From Thermodesulfobacteriota bacterium (GTDB taxonomy: Bacteria; Desulfobacterota_D; UBA1144; Nemesobacterales; Mycalebacteriaceae), in contig OZ242184.1 of assembly GCA_965205855.1 (NCBI GenBank), positions 334,853 through 398,852 on the forward strand: a DNA stretch of 64,000 nt, in the 5' to 3' direction. Position numbers and translations under genes: made by a program. The notes beneath the pieces were generated by a model. That model saw nothing but the letters and a program-made list of their open reading frames with translations, made no database searches and had not been told where the DNA came from. Shown here piece by piece: positions 2,807 to 9,745 of the stretch; within the stretch, counting starts at the first letter, position 1; every line of letters begins with the position of its first letter.

Positions 2807-3970
2807 GTGAGCGGATTTTGCGCAAAAGGCATAAAAACACGGCTTGGAATTCTCGGTGGCGGCCAGCTTGGCAAGATGCTGTGCCTTGCCGCAGCCGAAT
2901 GGAATTTGCCGACAATGATTCTTGACCCTTCGGGCGACTGTCCGGCGTCTTCGGTCTGCTCGGATTTTACAAAGGGGGATTTCAAAAATGCCTCCGATGT
3001 GATGAATTTCGGACACGGCGCGGACATGTTGACCATAGAGATAGAGCATGTGAACACGGACGCGCTCAAGACTCTTGAGCGCGATGGAACGATGACAAAT
3101 CCCTCGCCTGAAGTTATTTCGCTTATACAGGACAAGGGGCTTCAGAAACAGTTTTACTCGGAGCGGGGGATTCCCTCGCCGGATTTCTCCCTTTTTGACA
3201 CTCCGCGTGAGATTGCGGATGCGGTTGCGGGCGGCGCGCTCAAACTTCCTTTTGTGCAGAAACTTCGCACAAGCGGCTATGACGGGCGGGGTGTATCGGT
3301 TGTCCGTTCGGAGTCTGACCTCGGGCGGCTTCTTGACGGCCCTTCGGTTGTTGAAACCTTTGTTGACATAGAAAGAGAACTGTCGGTTATCGTGGCGCGC
3401 AACGGGAGCGGGCAGACCGCATGTTTTCCGCCTGTTGAGTTGATATTCAACAGCGAGGCAAACCTTGTGGAGTATCTTGTTTGTCCCGTGGAGAATGTTG
3501 ACCCCGTGGCACTTACGGAGGCGGAGAAAATTGCGCTTGAGATTGCGGATTCTCTGTCGCTGCGGGGAATAATAGCGGTTGAGATTTTTCTTTCCACAGA
3601 CGGGCGGGTTATGGTTAACGAGGCCGCTCCGCGTCCGCACAACAGCGGACATCACACAATAGAGGCGTGCGTGACATCGCAATACGAGCAGTGCCTTCGC
3701 GCCGTGCTGGATTTGCCGCTTGGCGGCACGGCTCTTAAAACTCCGTCTGTTATGGTTAACATTCTGGGCAAGCCGGGGTATGAGGGGGAAGCGATATACA
3801 GCGGATTGGATGAGTGCATGAGGGTGAGCGGGGCGAGCTTTCACATCTACGGAAAGACGCGCACAAAACCATTCAGAAAGATGGGGCATGTTACGGTTAC
3901 CGACAGGGATATAAAAAATGCTTTGACAAAGGCGCGGTTCATAAAACAAAATCTTAGGGTGGTGTCATGA
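2807..3970 (+). CDS. purK: N5-carboxyaminoimidazole ribonucleotide synthase (ATP-grasp)
   Basis: ILGGGQLGKM N-terminus, ATP-grasp motifs, followed by purE with a 4-nt overlap. Confidence 0.85.
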   Translation: MSGFCAKGIKTRLGILGGGQLGKMLCLAAAEWNLPTMILDPSGDCPASSVCSDFTKGDFKNASDVMNFGHGADMLTIEIEHVNTDALKTLERDGTMTNPSPEVISLIQDKGLQKQFYSERGIPSPDFSLFDTPREIADAVAGGALKLPFVQKLRTSGYDGRGVSVVRSESDLGRLLDGPSVVETFVDIERELSVIVARNGSGQTACFPPVELIFNSEANLVEYLVCPVENVDPVALTEAEKIALEIADSLSLRGIIAVEIFLSTDGRVMVNEAAPRPHNSGHHTIEACVTSQYEQCLRAVLDLPLGGTALKTPSVMVNILGKPGYEGEAIYSGLDECMRVSGASFHIYGKTRTKPFRKMGHVTVTDRDIKNALTKARFIKQNLRVVS

Positions 3971-4488
3971 GCAAACCGGTTGTAAGCGTTGTTATGGGTT
4001 CTGATTCGGACCTTGGGGTTATGAAAAAGGCGGCGGCCTTTCTTGAGGGTTTGGGAGTTCCCGTTGAGGTTACAATCGTGAGCGCTCACAGAACCCCGCA
4101 GCGGCTTTTTGATTTTGCGCAAAACGCGCACACGCGCGGGATAGATGTAATCATTGCCGGCGCGGGAGGCGCGGCGCATCTGCCCGGAATGATAGCGTCT
4201 ATTTCCCCGCTTCCGGTTATCGGCGTGCCGATTAACTCTTCAAACTCCATTGACGGTGTGGATTCGGTTCTTTCAATTCTCCAGATGCCCGCTGGTGTTC
4301 CGGTTGCGACTGTTGCCGTTGACGGCGGCGAGAATGCGGGAATTCTCGCGGCGGAGATTCTTGCGGTGAAAGCCCCCGCGCTTCGGGATAAAATTGTTGA
4401 GTTTAAAAAGGGACTTGCGGACGGCGTGAGGAAGAAGTTTGAACGGCTTGAGAAAGAGGGTTATGTGGAGTATTTGAAAGGGAAATGA
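3967..4488 (+). CDS. purE: N5-CAIR mutase
   Basis: VVMGSDSDLGVMKKAA and GAGGAAHLPGM motifs. Confidence 0.9.
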   Translation: MSKPVVSVVMGSDSDLGVMKKAAAFLEGLGVPVEVTIVSAHRTPQRLFDFAQNAHTRGIDVIIAGAGGAAHLPGMIASISPLPVIGVPINSSNSIDGVDSVLSILQMPAGVPVATVAVDGGENAGILAAEILAVKAPALRDKIVEFKKGLADGVRKKFERLEKEGYVEYLKGK

Positions 4489-5087
4489 CTTGGAAAGAGT
4501 TTGTTTATGATTTAGTAGTTCAACACTGCGAAAGGAGTGGTGAGAGAGCTTTTACCCTTCAAGAGCTTCAGAAGCAAAACAAAGACGAAATTTCCGGTTT
4601 CAGAGATAAGGCAAAAACTCCGAACGCGACAGTAAGAAGAGTCCTTCAAGAATTAAGGGACGTTGACCTTATAGCGTTTAAAAGCAAAGGGGAATATTGT
4701 TTACGAGGACAGGATTTGCCAATTCTGCAAGCCGGAGCGGAAGATGAGAGCCTTATTGAGATAATTAAAAAATCTCCCGTGGAAAAGAGAGAATATTTTT
4801 TTGAGGTATTTGTCAGAGACGCCTCTTGGAAAACAAAAGCCACAAAGGTTTTCGGTTTTGACTGTTTACTACCAAAATGCGTTAATTCATTCATCAAAGA
4901 GGACGGAACGCCTTATATTGAGGTTCATCACATTAAGTCTCTTTGCGAAGGCGGAGAGAATAATATTGGGAATTTATCTGTTGTGTGCGCGCACCATCAC
5001 AGGATGGCGCATTATGCGGATGTCCGCACACGGGAAGATATTCAAAACATATTGATTGAGAAAAACGGAAGTATCATTTCCGATTGA
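4485..5087 (+). CDS. HNH endonuclease with N-terminal winged-helix-like domain (McrA-like or restriction-associated)
   Basis: C-terminal HH..(N)..CxxHH motif (VHHIKSLCEGGENNIGNLSVVCAHHHRMAH). Low GC compared with its neighbours. The start ATG overlaps the purE stop (ATGA). Confidence 0.65.
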   Translation: MTWKEFVYDLVVQHCERSGERAFTLQELQKQNKDEISGFRDKAKTPNATVRRVLQELRDVDLIAFKSKGEYCLRGQDLPILQAGAEDESLIEIIKKSPVEKREYFFEVFVRDASWKTKATKVFGFDCLLPKCVNSFIKEDGTPYIEVHHIKSLCEGGENNIGNLSVVCAHHHRMAHYADVRTREDIQNILIEKNGSIISD

Positions 5088-5089
5088 AG

Positions 5090-5275
5090 TTACTGAAAAT
5101 TGTCAATAATTGTGGAAAGGTCTTTGATGCAATATCTTTCAATGACTTTTCCGTCCAGCCAAATCCATAGTTCCTCTCCGTCAAAATCCAGTTCGTCATA
5201 CGGTTCGTTGGTTGTTTTGAAATAGCGATAGATTGAATTCCATTGTTTTGAGATTGTGTCGTTAGTCTTGTGCAT
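5090..5275 (-). CDS. small hypothetical protein (61 aa) at the 3' end of the restriction-modification operon
   Basis: ORF only. Low-GC and same-strand, 1 nt downstream of the methyltransferase gene. Confidence 0.3.
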   Translation of the reverse strand: MHKTNDTISKQWNSIYRYFKTTNEPYDELDFDGEELWIWLDGKVIERYCIKDLSTIIDNFQ

Positions 5276-5276
5276 T

Positions 5277-6164
5277 TTAAGCCCGCCGTAAAGTTTTTCT
5301 TCTTTTTGCAGGGGTTTCTAAAAGTCTTGGCTGATTCTGCAAAGCCTCTTTTTCCATGTCGGGATATTTTTTGTCTCTGATAAATTTCTGTTTGTATTTT
5401 ATATCTATAAAGCCATTTTTCTCTATGCGTTCCAGTATCATTTTATGGTACTTCTTGTTTGTCTCACAGGACAGAAAGTTTCTCTTGAGGTTTTTTGTGA
5501 GGATTATTTCGGAACCGCTTCCGCCAAAAAGAATAAACACATTATCCTTTTCCACAGTGCAGGATTTGATAAGCATTTCAACAAGAGGCAGTGGAATCTG
5601 GCAGGAATGAAAGGTTTTGTCTTTTGAAACATTTTTTACTAAGTCAAAGTAAAACCATGAATAGGGCATTCTGCCTTTGTGTCCTTCTGCAATTCTTTGT
5701 TTTATCCTTCTGTCTTCGGGGTTTTGATATGGAACCGCCACTTGGTCTTTGTAGAAGTTATTGTCCTTCGTTTTTGTCGCGTGAAGTATTGAGCGGTGTG
5801 CTGTGGTAAAACGCTTTTTTGAATGCCCAACGTTTGTATTGTAAACCCAAGCGTAATCGTGAACTTCATAAGCTGCTTCATCAAGAAAATTAACCCGAAG
5901 ATATGAGTTTTGTTTTGGATAGTTAAGCAGAAAAAGATTTCCTTCTGGTTTTAAAACTCGCAAGCTTTCTTTTGCGAGCTCCGAATACCAGGCAATATAA
6001 GATTGCCAAGCCTTTCTGTGTTTTTCTCCTCCAGCGTAAACTATGCCGACATTGTAGTCAGGGTCTCCATAGACCATATCAAGACAGTTGTCTGGGAGTT
6101 TTTTTAAGACTTTTAGAACATCCTCATTGACAACGGAGTTTCTGTATTTGTTCGGCAATCTCAT
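5277..6164 (-). CDS. beta-class DNA methyltransferase (N6-adenine or N4-cytosine)
   Basis: Motif IV DPDY (DPPY-like) near the N-terminus, followed by motif I FGGSGS. This order is typical of beta-class amino-MTases. There is a HxxQxPxxL pre-motif. Confidence 0.8.
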   Translation of the reverse strand: MRLPNKYRNSVVNEDVLKVLKKLPDNCLDMVYGDPDYNVGIVYAGGEKHRKAWQSYIAWYSELAKESLRVLKPEGNLFLLNYPKQNSYLRVNFLDEAAYEVHDYAWVYNTNVGHSKKRFTTAHRSILHATKTKDNNFYKDQVAVPYQNPEDRRIKQRIAEGHKGRMPYSWFYFDLVKNVSKDKTFHSCQIPLPLVEMLIKSCTVEKDNVFILFGGSGSEIILTKNLKRNFLSCETNKKYHKMILERIEKNGFIDIKYKQKFIRDKKYPDMEKEALQNQPRLLETPAKRRKTLRRA

Positions 6165-6955
6165 TTATTTACCAATTTGTACTCTGCGGCTTTTAAAAGT
6201 TGTATTGAAGTCATGTCGCCTGGTTTTTTAAATGAGTAAAGATAAAGTCTCAAAACAGATTCGTTTTCAACATTGTCTCTTAACAGATAGCAACAGTTTA
6301 TTTGTTTCATCTCAAGACCTTCTTCTTTTTTTAGGTCTGAAAAATAAACAAAAGGAATATAGATTTGATAAACAGCAAAATCACCCAAAAAACCGTTTTT
6401 ACCTTCAACGACAGTTACTACTCCGTTGTGTTCAAAAGTCTGGTCTATTTCCATTTGTAAGTTTGTGGTCTTTATTTTTTGCTTGCCTACATTATAGGAG
6501 ATAGTTTTCTTGGTTCTTCTTGATTGATACACTTTCGCTTCTATATTCTCATTTCCGTAAAGGAAGTGATGAGTTATTCTCTGGTTGAATGCTACAGATA
6601 GAATGTTACTTTCGCTTGTATCATACTCATTGAGCAAACTTTTTCTGTATGTCCAGTTTTGGATATTCTTTTCGGGAATCGTTTCAAATTTGTGATAGCC
6701 ATTTTTGATGCCTTTCACAAATTGGTGCTTACCTTCGCCCAAATGTAAGATGAAGAAATCTTTTGCTTTCAGAAGTTCGGGAAGTTTTTCGGTTGAGTCA
6801 ATTTTTGTTACATCAAACGGGTTTCCAAACCCAACTTCTTTTGAAATTTCCTTTACGAGGTCATTGTGGAAAACAAAGTGTTTCTTCTGTAGACAATGTT
6901 GCAAAAGCTTCGTTTGCAACTGTTTTTTCTTACCTTCTATTTTTTCTTTAGTCAA
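6161..6955 (-). CDS. putative type II restriction endonuclease (PD-(D/E)xK candidate)
   Basis: Immediately upstream of the MTase on the same strand with a 4-nt overlap. Candidate catalytic motif EID...(15 aa)...VEGK. AT-rich codon usage. Confidence 0.45.
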   Translation of the reverse strand: MTKEKIEGKKKQLQTKLLQHCLQKKHFVFHNDLVKEISKEVGFGNPFDVTKIDSTEKLPELLKAKDFFILHLGEGKHQFVKGIKNGYHKFETIPEKNIQNWTYRKSLLNEYDTSESNILSVAFNQRITHHFLYGNENIEAKVYQSRRTKKTISYNVGKQKIKTTNLQMEIDQTFEHNGVVTVVEGKNGFLGDFAVYQIYIPFVYFSDLKKEEGLEMKQINCCYLLRDNVENESVLRLYLYSFKKPGDMTSIQLLKAAEYKLVNK

Positions 6956-7030: not shown

Positions 7031-7495
7031 TCACAACCGTGCGTCAAACTCAAACGGCAGTTTTTTTACCTTCTTAACCACCTGTTCAAAACCCGTATGC
7101 TGCGGGTTCAGTATATAAATCCATTCTCCTGACACAACCGCGCTTGGCACGGCAAGGGCGAGGGTTTTCTTTTTCCAGAGCCAAAAGTCGCCGATTATTG
7201 CGGTTTCTTGCGGCGACGGGTTGGCTCGCCAGTTACTTGGCAGTTGTTTTTGTTTCAAATACAACACATCTTTTTCCGGTATTTGCAATTCAAACAAACA
7301 GTATCTGTCCATTTTGATATTCCTTCTCTGATGCACAAACACTTCAAGAATCGCCAGAGACTCCGAACCGGCTGTATAGACGCACGTTGTTCCTATGCTG
7401 CTCCACCTTCCGCCAAATTCTTCAGTTCCTTCACCGCTGAACGCAACGGTTGAATACTCGTCTTTGACAAGCCGGTAAATGTTGAAAACTTTCAA
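7031..7495 (-). CDS. RES-domain toxin (ParT/MbcT-like NAD-targeting toxin)
   Basis: GGRWSSIGTTCVYTAGSESLAILEVFVH matches the RES-domain signature (R...E...S). About 150 aa, 4-nt overlap with the upstream antitoxin. Confidence 0.8.
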   Translation of the reverse strand: MKVFNIYRLVKDEYSTVAFSGEGTEEFGGRWSSIGTTCVYTAGSESLAILEVFVHQRRNIKMDRYCLFELQIPEKDVLYLKQKQLPSNWRANPSPQETAIIGDFWLWKKKTLALAVPSAVVSGEWIYILNPQHTGFEQVVKKVKKLPFEFDARL

Positions 7496-7851
7496 ACAAA
7501 AATCCCGTGCTCAAGACACCCTATCAAATTCAGAATCTGGTCGCTCTCAACCGATGTTCCGAGCAAATCAACGGGCTTTTTGTATCCGAGACCGCGAACG
7601 GGATGAGTTAGCCAATCCATTGCCGCCTCTTTGTCGCCCGCGAAAAGCCCCGTTGCCGCTTCCAGAACTTTGACAAACCTGTATAGACGGTCGCTCTCGT
7701 TTTTGTTGAACCTTCCAGCCTTTGCCCGCCGCTGAAGTGTGGCGGGAGAAATTAACGTTATTCTCGCAAGCTCTTTTTTATCAAGCCCGGAAATGGCGGA
7801 GAGTTTGTTGTAAATCTGATAGGAAAACCCTTCATTCAACGCCTCATGCAA
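7492..7851 (-). CDS. Xre-like antitoxin with DUF2384 domain (ParS/MbcA-like)
   Basis: About 120 aa with HTH-like TLISPATLQRR and a C-terminal DUF2384-like region (DWLTHPVRGLGYKKPVDLL), the canonical partner of RES toxins. Confidence 0.75.
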   Translation of the reverse strand: MHEALNEGFSYQIYNKLSAISGLDKKELARITLISPATLQRRAKAGRFNKNESDRLYRFVKVLEAATGLFAGDKEAAMDWLTHPVRGLGYKKPVDLLGTSVESDQILNLIGCLEHGIFV

Positions 7852-7933
7852 CTTTGCCCCTTGCCGGGGAACTCCGGTTGCATACCATATATCTTTGTTT
7901 TTCTCTTCTGCCGCTATCTTGCGTATCCTTCAC

Positions 7934-7956
7934 TTGATATATTAGCATTATATCAA
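7934..7956 (-). promoter_or_regulatory. perfect 8-bp inverted repeat TTGATATA-N7-TATATCAA overlapping the -10 (TATAAT) of a minus-strand promoter (-35 TTGTCT at 7969-7974); likely autoregulatory operator of the RES-Xre operon
   Basis: Read directly from the sequence. Spacer 16 nt, extended -10 TGnTATAAT. Located about 90 nt upstream of the antitoxin start and overlapping the ctaB stop codon. Confidence 0.55.
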
Positions 7957-8892
7957 ATGATACAACGAAGACAAGCTCGCGACTTCAATCAATTCCATAA
8001 TTTTTTTGATTTCTCTGTCTCTTGTCGCTATATCCACAATCAGCGCGGTCATTATCATCAGCATATAGATGATTGACGCCCCAAACGCAGTTTCATATCC
8101 TCTGCCCCTGACCGCGCACCTTATAACCATGAAGTTGAAGTAGATGCCAAGGGCAAGCGCGGCGGCGGCAAAGTAGGCGGTCGCCATTCCGGTAAGAAAC
8201 ATTGTAAGGGTCAGTGGAATAAGTGAGATTGAATAGAGAACAATCAGAATGTTTGTGTATTTTTCACCGAACGCCACAGGAAGAACGTCAATTCCGGCTT
8301 TTTCATATTCATGGCTGTATTTCTGCGCAAGTGCCCAGAAGTGCGGCGGTTGCCACAACATCATAAAAATAAAAAGCAGAAGCGCGTCCGCGCCGATTTC
8401 GGGACTGATTGCCGTGTACCCGATAAGCACCGGAAGCGCGCCCGGGATTCCGCCGAGAATGGTTCCGAACGGGGAGTTTCTTTTGAGAAACATCGTGTAG
8501 AGAACCGTGTAACTCGCCGCGGCAAGGGTGATTAACAAAGCGTTGGGAAGATTTATCCAGATTGCGGAGACAACTGTCGCGCCTCCCATGAGAATGAATG
8601 ACAAAACAGCCGCGTTTTTCTCTCCAAGAAGCTCAAGCGCGTTCACTCTCGCGCAAAGTCTGTCCATAAGTTTGTCGGATTTTCTGTCCAGAAAGTTGTT
8701 GAAGATTGCCGAACCGGCCGCCGCAACCATAAGGGTAATGCAACCAAGCAAGGCGGTTTTTATTTCGGGGATACCACCGCCGGAAAGAACCATCCCGGCA
8801 AACCCGGTGAATACGACGCTGAGGATAATTCCCGGTTTTGAGAGGACAACCGCTGAAACCACAATTTCCCGAACGGGTTTTTTGCCGTCCAT
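7948..8892 (-). CDS. ctaB: protoheme IX farnesyltransferase (heme O synthase, UbiA family)
   Basis: UbiA-type multi-TM protein with NxxxDxxxD-like motifs. Start chosen at MDGKKP to abut the ctaA stop; the longer ORF would overlap ctaA by 95 nt. Confidence 0.8.
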   Translation of the reverse strand: MDGKKPVREIVVSAVVLSKPGIILSVVFTGFAGMVLSGGGIPEIKTALLGCITLMVAAAGSAIFNNFLDRKSDKLMDRLCARVNALELLGEKNAAVLSFILMGGATVVSAIWINLPNALLITLAAASYTVLYTMFLKRNSPFGTILGGIPGALPVLIGYTAISPEIGADALLLFIFMMLWQPPHFWALAQKYSHEYEKAGIDVLPVAFGEKYTNILIVLYSISLIPLTLTMFLTGMATAYFAAAALALGIYFNFMVIRCAVRGRGYETAFGASIIYMLMIMTALIVDIATRDREIKKIMELIEVASLSSLYHLI

Positions 8893-8893
8893 A

Positions 8894-9745
8894 CTAACCA
8901 ACCGGATTTTCGCCGCTTTCAAACCATTTGAAAAGACTGAACGAAAGAATATGCAGCGCAACAAGCAGATGGAGCGCGGTCGCGGCAAACTGAAGCCCCG
9001 AATGAATCATACCGACACCGATGACGACTTGAAGAAACACCGAGCCGAGAATCACATATGCGGCTTTTCGCATTTTGCTCCCGGCGTATGTGTGGGAGAA
9101 AACCGCCATACCGATTGCGAATAACGCTATGAGATATCCGAGGGCTCTGTGGAAGAAGTGATAAAGCACCACGCCGGAAAGGTCGGGCGGAATCCACACT
9201 CCGAGGCATTTGGGGAAGTCAGCTCCACAGGCAAGCCCCGCGTCCGAGTGGCGCACAAACGCGCCGGCAACCGCCTGAAAAAGAACAAGCGCGGCGAAGG
9301 CAAACCACATTCCGTAAATTCCCGATGTTGAAAGCCCGTTTCGGGGACTGGTCTCAAAACGGCTCATGTAAACCGTTATGCAGAAGATAAGAGCCGCGTT
9401 GGCGAAATGGACGGTTGTCAGGTCGGTCGGCAGTTTGAGCAAAACCACCGAGCCACCGAGCCCAATCTGGACAACAAGCAGAAAAATCGCGAGAGCCGGA
9501 AGCAGTTTCGCGGCTCCCGTGTATGACCTTATACGCCTTGCGGAAAGCCAGATTATAACAACCGCCGTGAATGCCCCGATAATGCGGTGGAGAAACTCGG
9601 CGTAGATATCCCAGCGCAAAGGCGGGAGAATCTTGCCGTGACAGAGAGGCCAGTCCGGACAGGCGAGACCCACCTTTAGCCCCGCGACGATGTTTCCCCA
9701 GACCAGAAGAATGACAAGGGATATTAAAGCCAGTCTGGAAAGCAT
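8894..9745 (-). CDS. ctaA: heme A synthase (COX15/CtaA family)
   Basis: Multi-TM protein with conserved His pairs, sitting between the cox operon and ctaB. Confidence 0.7.
   Translation of the reverse strand: MLSRLALISLVILLVWGNIVAGLKVGLACPDWPLCHGKILPPLRWDIYAEFLHRIIGAFTAVVIIWLSARRIRSYTGAAKLLPALAIFLLVVQIGLGGSVVLLKLPTDLTTVHFANAALIFCITVYMSRFETSPRNGLSTSGIYGMWFAFAALVLFQAVAGAFVRHSDAGLACGADFPKCLGVWIPPDLSGVVLYHFFHRALGYLIALFAIGMAVFSHTYAGSKMRKAAYVILGSVFLQVVIGVGMIHSGLQFAATALHLLVALHILSFSLFKWFESGENPVG

Follow-up and report, generated by a model that had tools for sequence, protein, structure and literature searches.

The question raised by this locus is whether a toxin-antitoxin operon and a respiratory gene that share a few nucleotides also share a function. 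The window (the whole stretch of 64,000 nucleotides that was analysed) contains a RES-Xre pair immediately behind ctaB, and a preliminary description had placed a palindrome over both the promoter of the pair and the stop codon of ctaB, concluding that toxin-antitoxin autoregulation and the 3' end of a respiratory gene share sequence. Our comparison with homologous loci supports a simpler reading, namely that the pair forms a type II RES/Xre operon on the chromosome, belongs to the VPA0770-VPA0769 / ParST branch and carries the operator of its family, the overlap with ctaB being secondary. We give this reading a probability of about 0.78. The features on which the argument draws are collected in Table 1.

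Table 1. Position of the genes and sequence elements at the ctaB end of the island in the window, with what each rests on
Feature	Position	Strand	Basis or remark
Type IV methyl-directed restriction enzyme	4485-5087	+	
Type II methyltransferase	5277-6164		
Type II restriction enzyme	6161-6955		
RES-domain toxin gene, 154 aa, TTG start	7031..7495	-	PF08808 E=2.4e-26; NF049844
Xre/ParS-type antitoxin coding region, 141 codons from in-frame ATA 7917-7915	7492..7917	-	alignment with homologues
Internal in-frame TTG (Leu23), preceded by AAGGGG	7849..7851	-	ORF list; relatives have CTT here
Shine-Dalgarno-like AAGGA, 8 nt upstream of ATA 7917	7926..7930	-	read from sequence
Operator-like 31-bp site TCATTTGATA-TAATGCTAATA-TATCAAGTGA	7930..7960	.	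0 mismatches to TCAnnTGATA-N11-TATCAnnTGA
Extended -10 element TGaTATAAT	7947..7955	-	inner part of upstream operator arm and first spacer bases
ctaB (heme O synthase), last gene of the cox-ctaA-ctaB cluster	7948..8892	-	PF01040 E=1e-41
Present ctaB stop TAA	7948..7950	-	inside the TATAAT -10 and where the operator spacer begins
12-codon ctaB read-through extension (EVASLSSLYHLI), beginning with GAA 7986-7984	7951..7986	-	junction alignment
-35-like hexamer TTGTCT, 16-nt spacer to the -10	7969..7974	-	promoter scan

The identification of a RES-Xre type II pair was borne out by both proteins. The toxin scored 93.1 bits against PF08808 (Pfam threshold 23.2) and 163 bits against NF049844, the NCBIfam model for type II RES/Xre toxin-antitoxin systems (cut-off 110), while the antitoxin combines the Xre-like HTH domain PF20432 with the Xre/MbcA/ParS C-terminal domain PF09722 and exceeds the curated NCBIfam cut-offs of NF049845 (106 bits) and TIGR02293 (121 bits). 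The genes follow the antitoxin-first bicistronic order and overlap, as described, by 4 nt (TTGA, 7492-7495). In the toxin the R30/E51/S118 triad of the NAD+ pocket is present, in alignment columns that are 96-100% conserved among 67 relatives, and the same three residues also align with 8GUG_A and ParT. Furthermore, the protein retains 38 of the 39 positions with at least 90% conservation; the one exception is N32S, which immediately follows the catalytic Arg-Trp and replaces an Asn found in 96% of the relatives. Judging from family membership, the free toxin would be expected to consume NAD+ or to use NAD+ to ADP-ribosylate a target.

The affiliation of the pair within the RES families had been given as 'ParST/MbcTA type', a label of which the second half is loose. 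ParT is the second-best sequence match of the toxin (E=9.3e-18), after 8GUG_A (E=1.1e-27), and the NCBIfam subfamily name, 'Res_ParT_toxin', applies to the window toxin and to ParT alike, whereas MbcT went undetected by sequence at E<=0.01. By sequence the toxin is thus closer to VPA0770 and ParT than to RES-Pp or MbcT, a proximity that does not decide its activity. ParT belongs to ParST (6D0H), whose toxin ADP-ribosylates Prs, and the solved ParS chains (71-72 residues) match 67-69 columns of our antitoxin model, roughly its C-terminal half. MbcTA and NatRT, which are NAD+ phosphorylases, have the same RES fold class and an antitoxin C-terminal domain that neutralises likewise, and the antitoxin matches to MbcA and NatR were weak.

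The closest solved structure is that of VPA0770-VPA0769 from V. parahaemolyticus (8GUG; Zhang et al. 2023, as cited in PMC12457610), which is the best match of both window proteins in sequence (toxin E=1.1e-27, antitoxin E=5e-24) and in model superposition (TM 0.81/0.90). VPA0769 shares the two-domain build of the window antitoxin, including the N-terminal FW..G segment, and the Vibrio homologues in our set (L053-L057 and L069) bear the same operator motif as the window. The likeness has its limits: identity is only ~38%, the window host is Dadabacteria-like, and the window pair differs in having an antitoxin without a canonical start codon and a toxin with N32S. VPA0770 has been grouped among the NAD+-depleting toxins (PMC12204516) and has also been presented as a predicted ADP-ribosyltransferase (PMC12457610), two assignments that are inconsistent with each other. 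The Xre-RES pair of P. putida (6GW6, 9R35; PMC12204516) has the same architecture, and its Xre fold matches 135 of the 141 residues of the window antitoxin model, although the sequences are only remotely similar (E=0.006 for the antitoxin, E=5e-9 for the toxin).

The extent of the antitoxin gene has to be revised upstream. In the ORF list it is a 119-aa frame with a TTG start (7492-7851 on the minus strand), and the start called by NCBI is TTG 7839, with a product of 115 aa. Antitoxin homologues measure 140-153 aa and possess a conserved N-terminal segment, FW..G.P.RG..LH.AL, that is absent from the 119-aa ORF. The in-frame sequence upstream of TTG 7851 encodes ...KNKDIWYATGVPRQGAK-L, i.e. this very segment, with W11, G15, P17 and L23, all invariant in the family alignment, kept; antitoxin coding therefore reaches to ~7917, beyond the TTG of the ORF list. 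No in-frame ATG, GTG or TTG was found between TGA 7932-7930 and TTG 7851. In the junction alignment, ATA-GCG-GCA of the window antitoxin aligns with ATG-ACC-GCA of L001, one of two relatives with the same gene order, and the simplest reading of this alignment would be an ATG-to-ATA transition in the start codon. The geometry of AAGGA and ATA matches the AAGGAG-6 nt-ATG of another homologous locus, L002. In 66 of 69 homologous loci the conserved W is preceded by an ATG in frame, and the three without any canonical start include the window. Like the N32S substitution of the toxin, this feature had been passed over in the preliminary description.

Several observations indicate that the N-terminal segment is part of the antitoxin fold. 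The TIGR02293 model spans residues 16-140. The AlphaFold (AF2) model of the antitoxin, with a mean pLDDT of 87, reaches a pLDDT of 86 for residues 11-20 and forms a short helix at residues 10-14, and it superposes on VPA0769 (8GUG_B) with a TM of 0.81, with fold matches also to 6GW6_B and 9R35. In P. putida, Xre dimerises through an interface that is required for DNA binding and at which its N-terminus is located, and a tag on this N-terminus is expected to prevent Xre dimerisation (PMC12204516). L004, the other relative that shares this gene order, differs from the window at 5 synonymous and 3 non-synonymous sites in the 16 codons before TTG 7851, a pattern resembling that of the next 16 codons; for most of its history, therefore, the segment has been coding. 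ATA is among the alternative initiators of genetic-code table 11. We see three possibilities: the antitoxin is made by weak initiation at AUA 7917, it is made in truncated form from TTG 7851, or it has recently become defective. TTG 7851 is a possible alternative start, which would give an antitoxin of 119 aa that is short of 22 conserved N-terminal residues.

We also considered a frameshift origin of the antitoxin N-terminus, starting at GTG 7933-7931 in another frame and joined at the A-run. This was rejected because the GTG lies inside the conserved operator arm, has no Shine-Dalgarno sequence and requires a +1 shift, and because the alignment with L001 places the ATA opposite the ATG at the expected Shine-Dalgarno distance.

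The palindrome TTGATATA (7934-7941) / TATATCAA (7949-7956) is perfect, with an N7 spacer, as had been reported, and with one mismatch allowed its arms lengthen to 12 nt (7930-7941 / 7949-7960). Shuffled sequence would give 0.02 matches to the 8-N7-8 pattern at <=2 mismatches, and the 64-kb window has a single one. The conserved element is larger than the 23-bp core that had been noted: it is the 31-bp site 7930-7960, the sole match to its motif in the window, where 0.13 would be expected at <=3 mismatches.

To place this site in its family, we assembled homologous loci by an antitoxin protein search and a scan of one genome per species, which gave 71 loci with 33-66% identity, mostly from Gammaproteobacteria and two of them on plasmids; three further xre-res loci were added from contig look-ups, and a metagenome scan with the antitoxin gave no matches. 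A motif scan in Python of 73 loci, ~6 kb each, allowing <=3 mismatches in the 20 specified bases, found TCAnnTGATA-N11-TATCAnnTGA upstream of the antitoxin in 61 of them, most in unrelated genomic contexts. The motif occurs once per locus, except for one extra match with 3 mismatches in L002, and always roughly 60-165 nt upstream of the antitoxin match. The control loci, obtained from a metagenome scan with ctaB (25 loci, one of them close at 76%), carried the operator in none, and 122 kb of unrelated DNA in control loci yielded a single motif match, at 3 mismatches. Over 60 distinct contexts the information content is 1.3-2.0 bits per position in the arms, a figure partly inflated since the sites had been picked with the pattern itself, and ~0 bits in the 40 nt on either side, which indicates that only the operator site is conserved across contexts. 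The real test of the operator is its near-uniqueness per locus together with its constant position. The occurrence upstream of the antitoxin in 61 of 73 loci, mostly in unrelated contexts, argues that the 31-bp palindrome is very probably the operator of the xre-res family and not a ctaB element. In the literature searched we found no description of the 31-bp consensus.

A palindrome at the end of a gene could also act as an RNA structure, that is, as a hairpin or terminator for ctaB rather than as a protein-binding site. Indeed, the 61-nt region folds into a 12-bp hairpin of -17.9 kcal/mol (z = -3.8 versus shuffles). The terminator scan, however, did not call the palindrome, the stem of which is A+T-rich and is followed by AGGAUACG, with no U tract, and a transcript from the promoter of the pair would begin inside the loop. 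The motif accompanies xre-res into contexts without ctaB, and its arms are kept in sequence: at the two variable positions per arm, the arms are complementary to each other in only 39 of 120 cases, which argues that sequence and not pairing is maintained and points to a protein-binding site instead of an RNA stem. We regard an RNA role as hardly credible, and the narrower proposal of an intrinsic terminator of ctaB is ruled out by the missing U tract, the negative scan, the lack of compensatory change and the mobility of the motif.

The reading as a family operator agrees with the position of the site in the promoter. The TTGTCT and TGnTATAAT elements named in the preliminary description were recovered by the promoter scan as a sigma-70-like promoter matching at 10 of 12 positions, with TTGTCT (7974-7969), 16 nt, TATAAT (7952-7947) and an upstream TG. 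The -35 is weak (4/6) and the -10 is a perfect TATAAT; the orthologous -35 hexamers are TTGACT in L001 and TTGACC in L004. Across the family the upstream arm contains TGnTA, and motif position 14 is a T in 44 of 60 distinct sites, so that an extended -10 (TGnTAnnnT) appears to be built into the operator family-wide. Transcription would start from TTGTCT-16-TGaTATAAT at ~7940. The antitoxin HTH is predicted to bind the 31-bp operator at 7930-7960; its PATLQRRAK segment, which is invariant or nearly so across homologues, is the counterpart, by alignment, of the P. putida Xre recognition helix. By analogy with the P. putida Xre-RES pair, binding would probably be by the antitoxin-toxin complex, and since the extended -10 lies within the upstream operator arm, the bound operator would block RNA polymerase and repress the operon. 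In P. putida, Xre-RES represses its own promoter via an imperfect inverted repeat, as demonstrated experimentally, and a crystal structure of the DNA complex is available (PMC12204516); for the window, repression is a prediction. Autoregulation through the palindrome, which had been proposed from the window by itself, is now very likely given the recurrence of the same motif at the homologous loci.

The loss of the antitoxin start and the N32S substitution suggest that the module is possibly attenuated or decaying, in which case the pair would be nearing inactivation or already be harmless and the operator would be a relic. In keeping with this, the window is among the 3 of 69 loci in which no canonical start precedes the conserved antitoxin N-terminus, the NCBI-called product is shortened, and the residue altered in the toxin adjoins the catalytic Arg. 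Nevertheless, neither frame is interrupted anywhere along its length, the stretch before TTG 7851 has lost none of its invariant residues and differs from L004 much as the next 16 codons do, the Shine-Dalgarno sequence stands at the right distance from the ATA, and the operator has no mismatches and a perfect -10. The intact frames, operator and -10 disfavour advanced decay, and we consider this explanation unlikely. In the operon reading that we prefer, antitoxin would come from weak, non-canonical initiation at ATA 7917 or, truncated, from the internal TTG 7851.

How the ctaB stop codon came to lie in the operator can be reconstructed from the relatives. The ctaB gene of the window scores 224.9 bits against TIGR01473 (cut-off 210.3) and directly follows ctaA (PF02628), as in the relatives, where the order is COX1-COX3-COX4-CtaA-CtaB. 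From ATG 8892 it encodes 314 aa, 100% identical to P0016. In L004, a Thermodesulfobacteriota MAG, ctaB ends in ...REIDELMRFV-TGA, followed by 8 nt, TTGACC, the operator, ATG-xre and res; in L001 the ctaB TGA is followed by 7 nt, TTGACT, the operator and ATG, with a two-gene cassette inserted upstream of the junction and flanked by a duplicated ctaB 3' end. In neither genome does ctaB touch the operator, its stop lying 7-8 nt before the -35. In the alignment, GAA 7986-7984 of the window stands exactly at the in-frame TGA of L004 and L001, and ctaB of L077 ends at the same position (...MEFV-TGA). Furthermore, 10 of the 11 closest CtaB orthologues (72-80% identity) stop at or within a few residues of the ancestral position (..MEFV, ..MRFV, ..MKLV), and nine of the 11 are 300-306 aa long, versus 314 aa in the window. 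Two orthologues are longer: L001 (313 aa), only N-terminally, and another (312 aa) with a divergent tail. For some of these closest orthologues the source gives the name Candidatus Mycalebacterium or Dadabacteria.

The ancestral order, kept in L004 and L001, was ctaB-TGA, 7-8 nt and the -35; in this lineage TGA changed to GAA, which carries ctaB 12 codons on, through the promoter. The extension crosses the -35 hexamer into the -10 and ends in ATA-TAA, the TAA being that of TATAAT. That a gene which has lost its stop is read on through the regulatory DNA behind it, up to the next stop in frame, is a general phenomenon; peculiar to the window is that the new stop is the TAA of a -10 within a repressor site. 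The claim that the operator and the ctaB 3' end share sequence is literally correct (TAA 7950-7948), and it does not stand as a meaningful arrangement. By comparison of the aligned junctions, the overlap is a derived, lineage-specific accident found in this genome only, and the extension is in all likelihood neutral, a tail that serves no regulation. We found no closer sister genome than the relatives compared, and saw no sign that the overlap constrains the functions of ctaB and the toxin-antitoxin pair or ties them together. In P. putida, by comparison, the gene upstream of Xre-RES, nfsB, is a 172-bp promoter region away, unlike ctaB in the window.

The surroundings of the pair help to explain its position. 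In the window, the interval from purE (3967-4488) to ctaB holds four modules, of which the toxin-antitoxin pair adjoins ctaB. Directly after the ctaB stop, L075 carries a DndB-domain protein and a methyltransferase, L076 a TaqI-type restriction-modification pair and L077 a methyltransferase, and in L076 and L077 purE and purK follow the cargo. The GC content of the restriction genes of the window is 0.34-0.40, compared with 0.49 for xre, 0.46 for res, 0.49 for ctaB and a window average of 0.49. Pairwise identities among the three genomes with the pair behind ctaB are 66/65/69% for xre, 59/58/63% for res and 76/77/79% for ctaB, in the same ranking, and this ranking together with the ctaB-like GC of xre argues for long co-residence of the pair with ctaB. 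Judged by these data, the pair seems to have resided for a long time at that edge of a variable defence island or hotspot which borders ctaB; some lineages would have inherited it together with ctaB, and in others it would have been replaced. No direct repeats or attachment-site-like duplications of note were found bounding the island within the window. The operon occupies the first slot of this ctaB-purE defence island, in a genome related to Candidatus Mycalebacterium (Dadabacteria).

A rival reading is that the two operons are functionally coupled. In such a scheme, cox-ctaA-ctaB transcripts would read into xre-res, operator-bound Xre-RES would stall polymerase at the end of ctaB, and ribosomes would re-initiate at the ATA, which in this lineage would mean re-initiation 30 nt past the ctaB TAA and an antitoxin supply that tracks ctaB expression. 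The genes are co-directional, no terminator fits the gap between ctaB and the promoter in the window, in L004 or in the ancestral copy of L001, the adjacency is kept in three genomes in which CtaB is only ~77% identical, and the ctaB stop and the antitoxin ATG were lost together in one genome. These points are outweighed, in our view, by the restriction of the stop-in-operator overlap to this genome and by the unrelated cargo behind ctaB in L075-L077, which are equally close and which indicate that ctaB does not need the pair. The same module also stands behind unrelated genes in ~60 other genomes, and re-initiation and roadblock are both purely conjectural steps. We therefore hold functional coupling to be improbable. 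A stronger version, in which antitoxin synthesis would depend on the respiratory operon through re-initiation at AUA on cox-cta read-through and operator-bound Xre-RES would halt polymerase ahead of the ctaB stop codon and so yield non-stop ctaB messages, is highly improbable; if true, the toxin-antitoxin pair and heme O synthase would regulate each other. Even so, a functional link of some kind to the cox/cta operon may exist, given that three divergent genomes keep the pair beside ctaB and have no space for a terminator between them.

Taken as a chromosomal RES/Xre operon under its family operator, the locus is an ordinary example of a known toxin-antitoxin family, and its overlap with ctaB is real but incidental. 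The overlap is still of use as a clear case of a housekeeping gene that, its stop codon lost, extends into the promoter of a neighbouring mobile module. It is of less interest than the operator consensus shared across the family and the absence of a canonical start codon in the antitoxin. A near-intact toxin beside such an antitoxin poses the question of whether the cell survives by non-AUG initiation, by a truncated antitoxin or by an attenuated toxin. The sharply defined 31-bp consensus of the VPA0769/ParS-like antitoxin branch, one arm of which contains the extended -10, could help to annotate modules of this kind.

The probable operator upstream of the antitoxin gene consists of two copies of the 8-bp palindrome TCAnnTGA, one within each arm, in the window as well as at the 60 homologous sites, with starts spaced 23 bp apart and arm centres 21 bp apart. 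The Xre-RES system of P. putida forms a 4:2 complex containing two Xre dimers, and by analogy the paired arrangement might therefore reflect the binding of both dimers. Residue 32 of the toxin falls in the motif GGRW-N, next to the catalytic arginine, and is a serine in the window vs an asparagine in 96% of 67 relatives; this exchange may have yielded an attenuated toxin.

As for gene starts, the antitoxins of two homologous loci (L042 and L052), like that of the window, have no canonical in-frame start codon upstream of the conserved tryptophan; at these two loci frameshifts, errors of assembly or genuine non-canonical starts may be the cause. The mechanically called ORF of ctaB, the heme O synthase gene, begins with TTG, encodes 346 aa and overlaps the neighbouring ctaA; the database protein identical to window ctaB has 314 aa and starts at an ATG located 1 nt past the ctaA stop codon. 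On a practical matter, in L075, a ctaB relative on a contig with 4x coverage, three called genes make up a split COX1, probably as a result of assembly frameshifts, which calls for caution with low-coverage long-read MAG contigs from this clade.

Between purE and the toxin-antitoxin pair we observed a defence island of low GC content (0.34-0.40). Its HNH/DpnI_C gene begins within the end of purE, with 4 nt shared between its start and the purE stop, and an overlap of the same length joins the methyltransferase gene to the DUF6996/DUF6997 gene. In the three closest ctaB relatives the same purE-ctaB slot carries different cargo downstream of ctaB, and we conclude that it is a defence-gene hotspot in the clade of the window genome.

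Coordinates of the features and cargo of the purE-ctaB slot in relatives
Feature	Sequence	Coordinates	Strand	Match or remark
Defence island	window	4485-6955		
HNH/DpnI_C protein	window	4485-5087	plus	type IV methyl-directed restriction enzyme
Type II methyltransferase	window	5277-6164		in defence island
DUF6996/DUF6997 protein	window	6161-6955		type II restriction enzyme
Toxin codon 32	window	7400-7402		
Probable operator	window	7930-7960		
ctaB, mechanical ORF	window	7948-8988		TTG at 8988
ctaB, database start	window	8892		ATG
Split COX1	L075	261-1721		
Duplicated ctaB end	L001	1928-1969 and 2906-2939		
DndB-domain protein + D12 methyltransferase	L075			downstream of ctaB
TaqI-type restriction-modification pair	L076			downstream of ctaB
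N6_N4 methyltransferase	L077			downstream of ctaB

In L001, a relative sharing the ctaB/toxin-antitoxin junction, a ~0.9-kb cassette has been inserted between ctaB and the toxin-antitoxin promoter. It carries one ORF of 57 aa and another of 213 aa, and the 57-aa ORF is similar to the beginning of the gene located after ctaB in L077. Because this cassette is bordered by directly repeated copies of the final 34-42 nt of ctaB, our findings suggest that the 3' end of ctaB is a site at which cassettes integrate or recombine.
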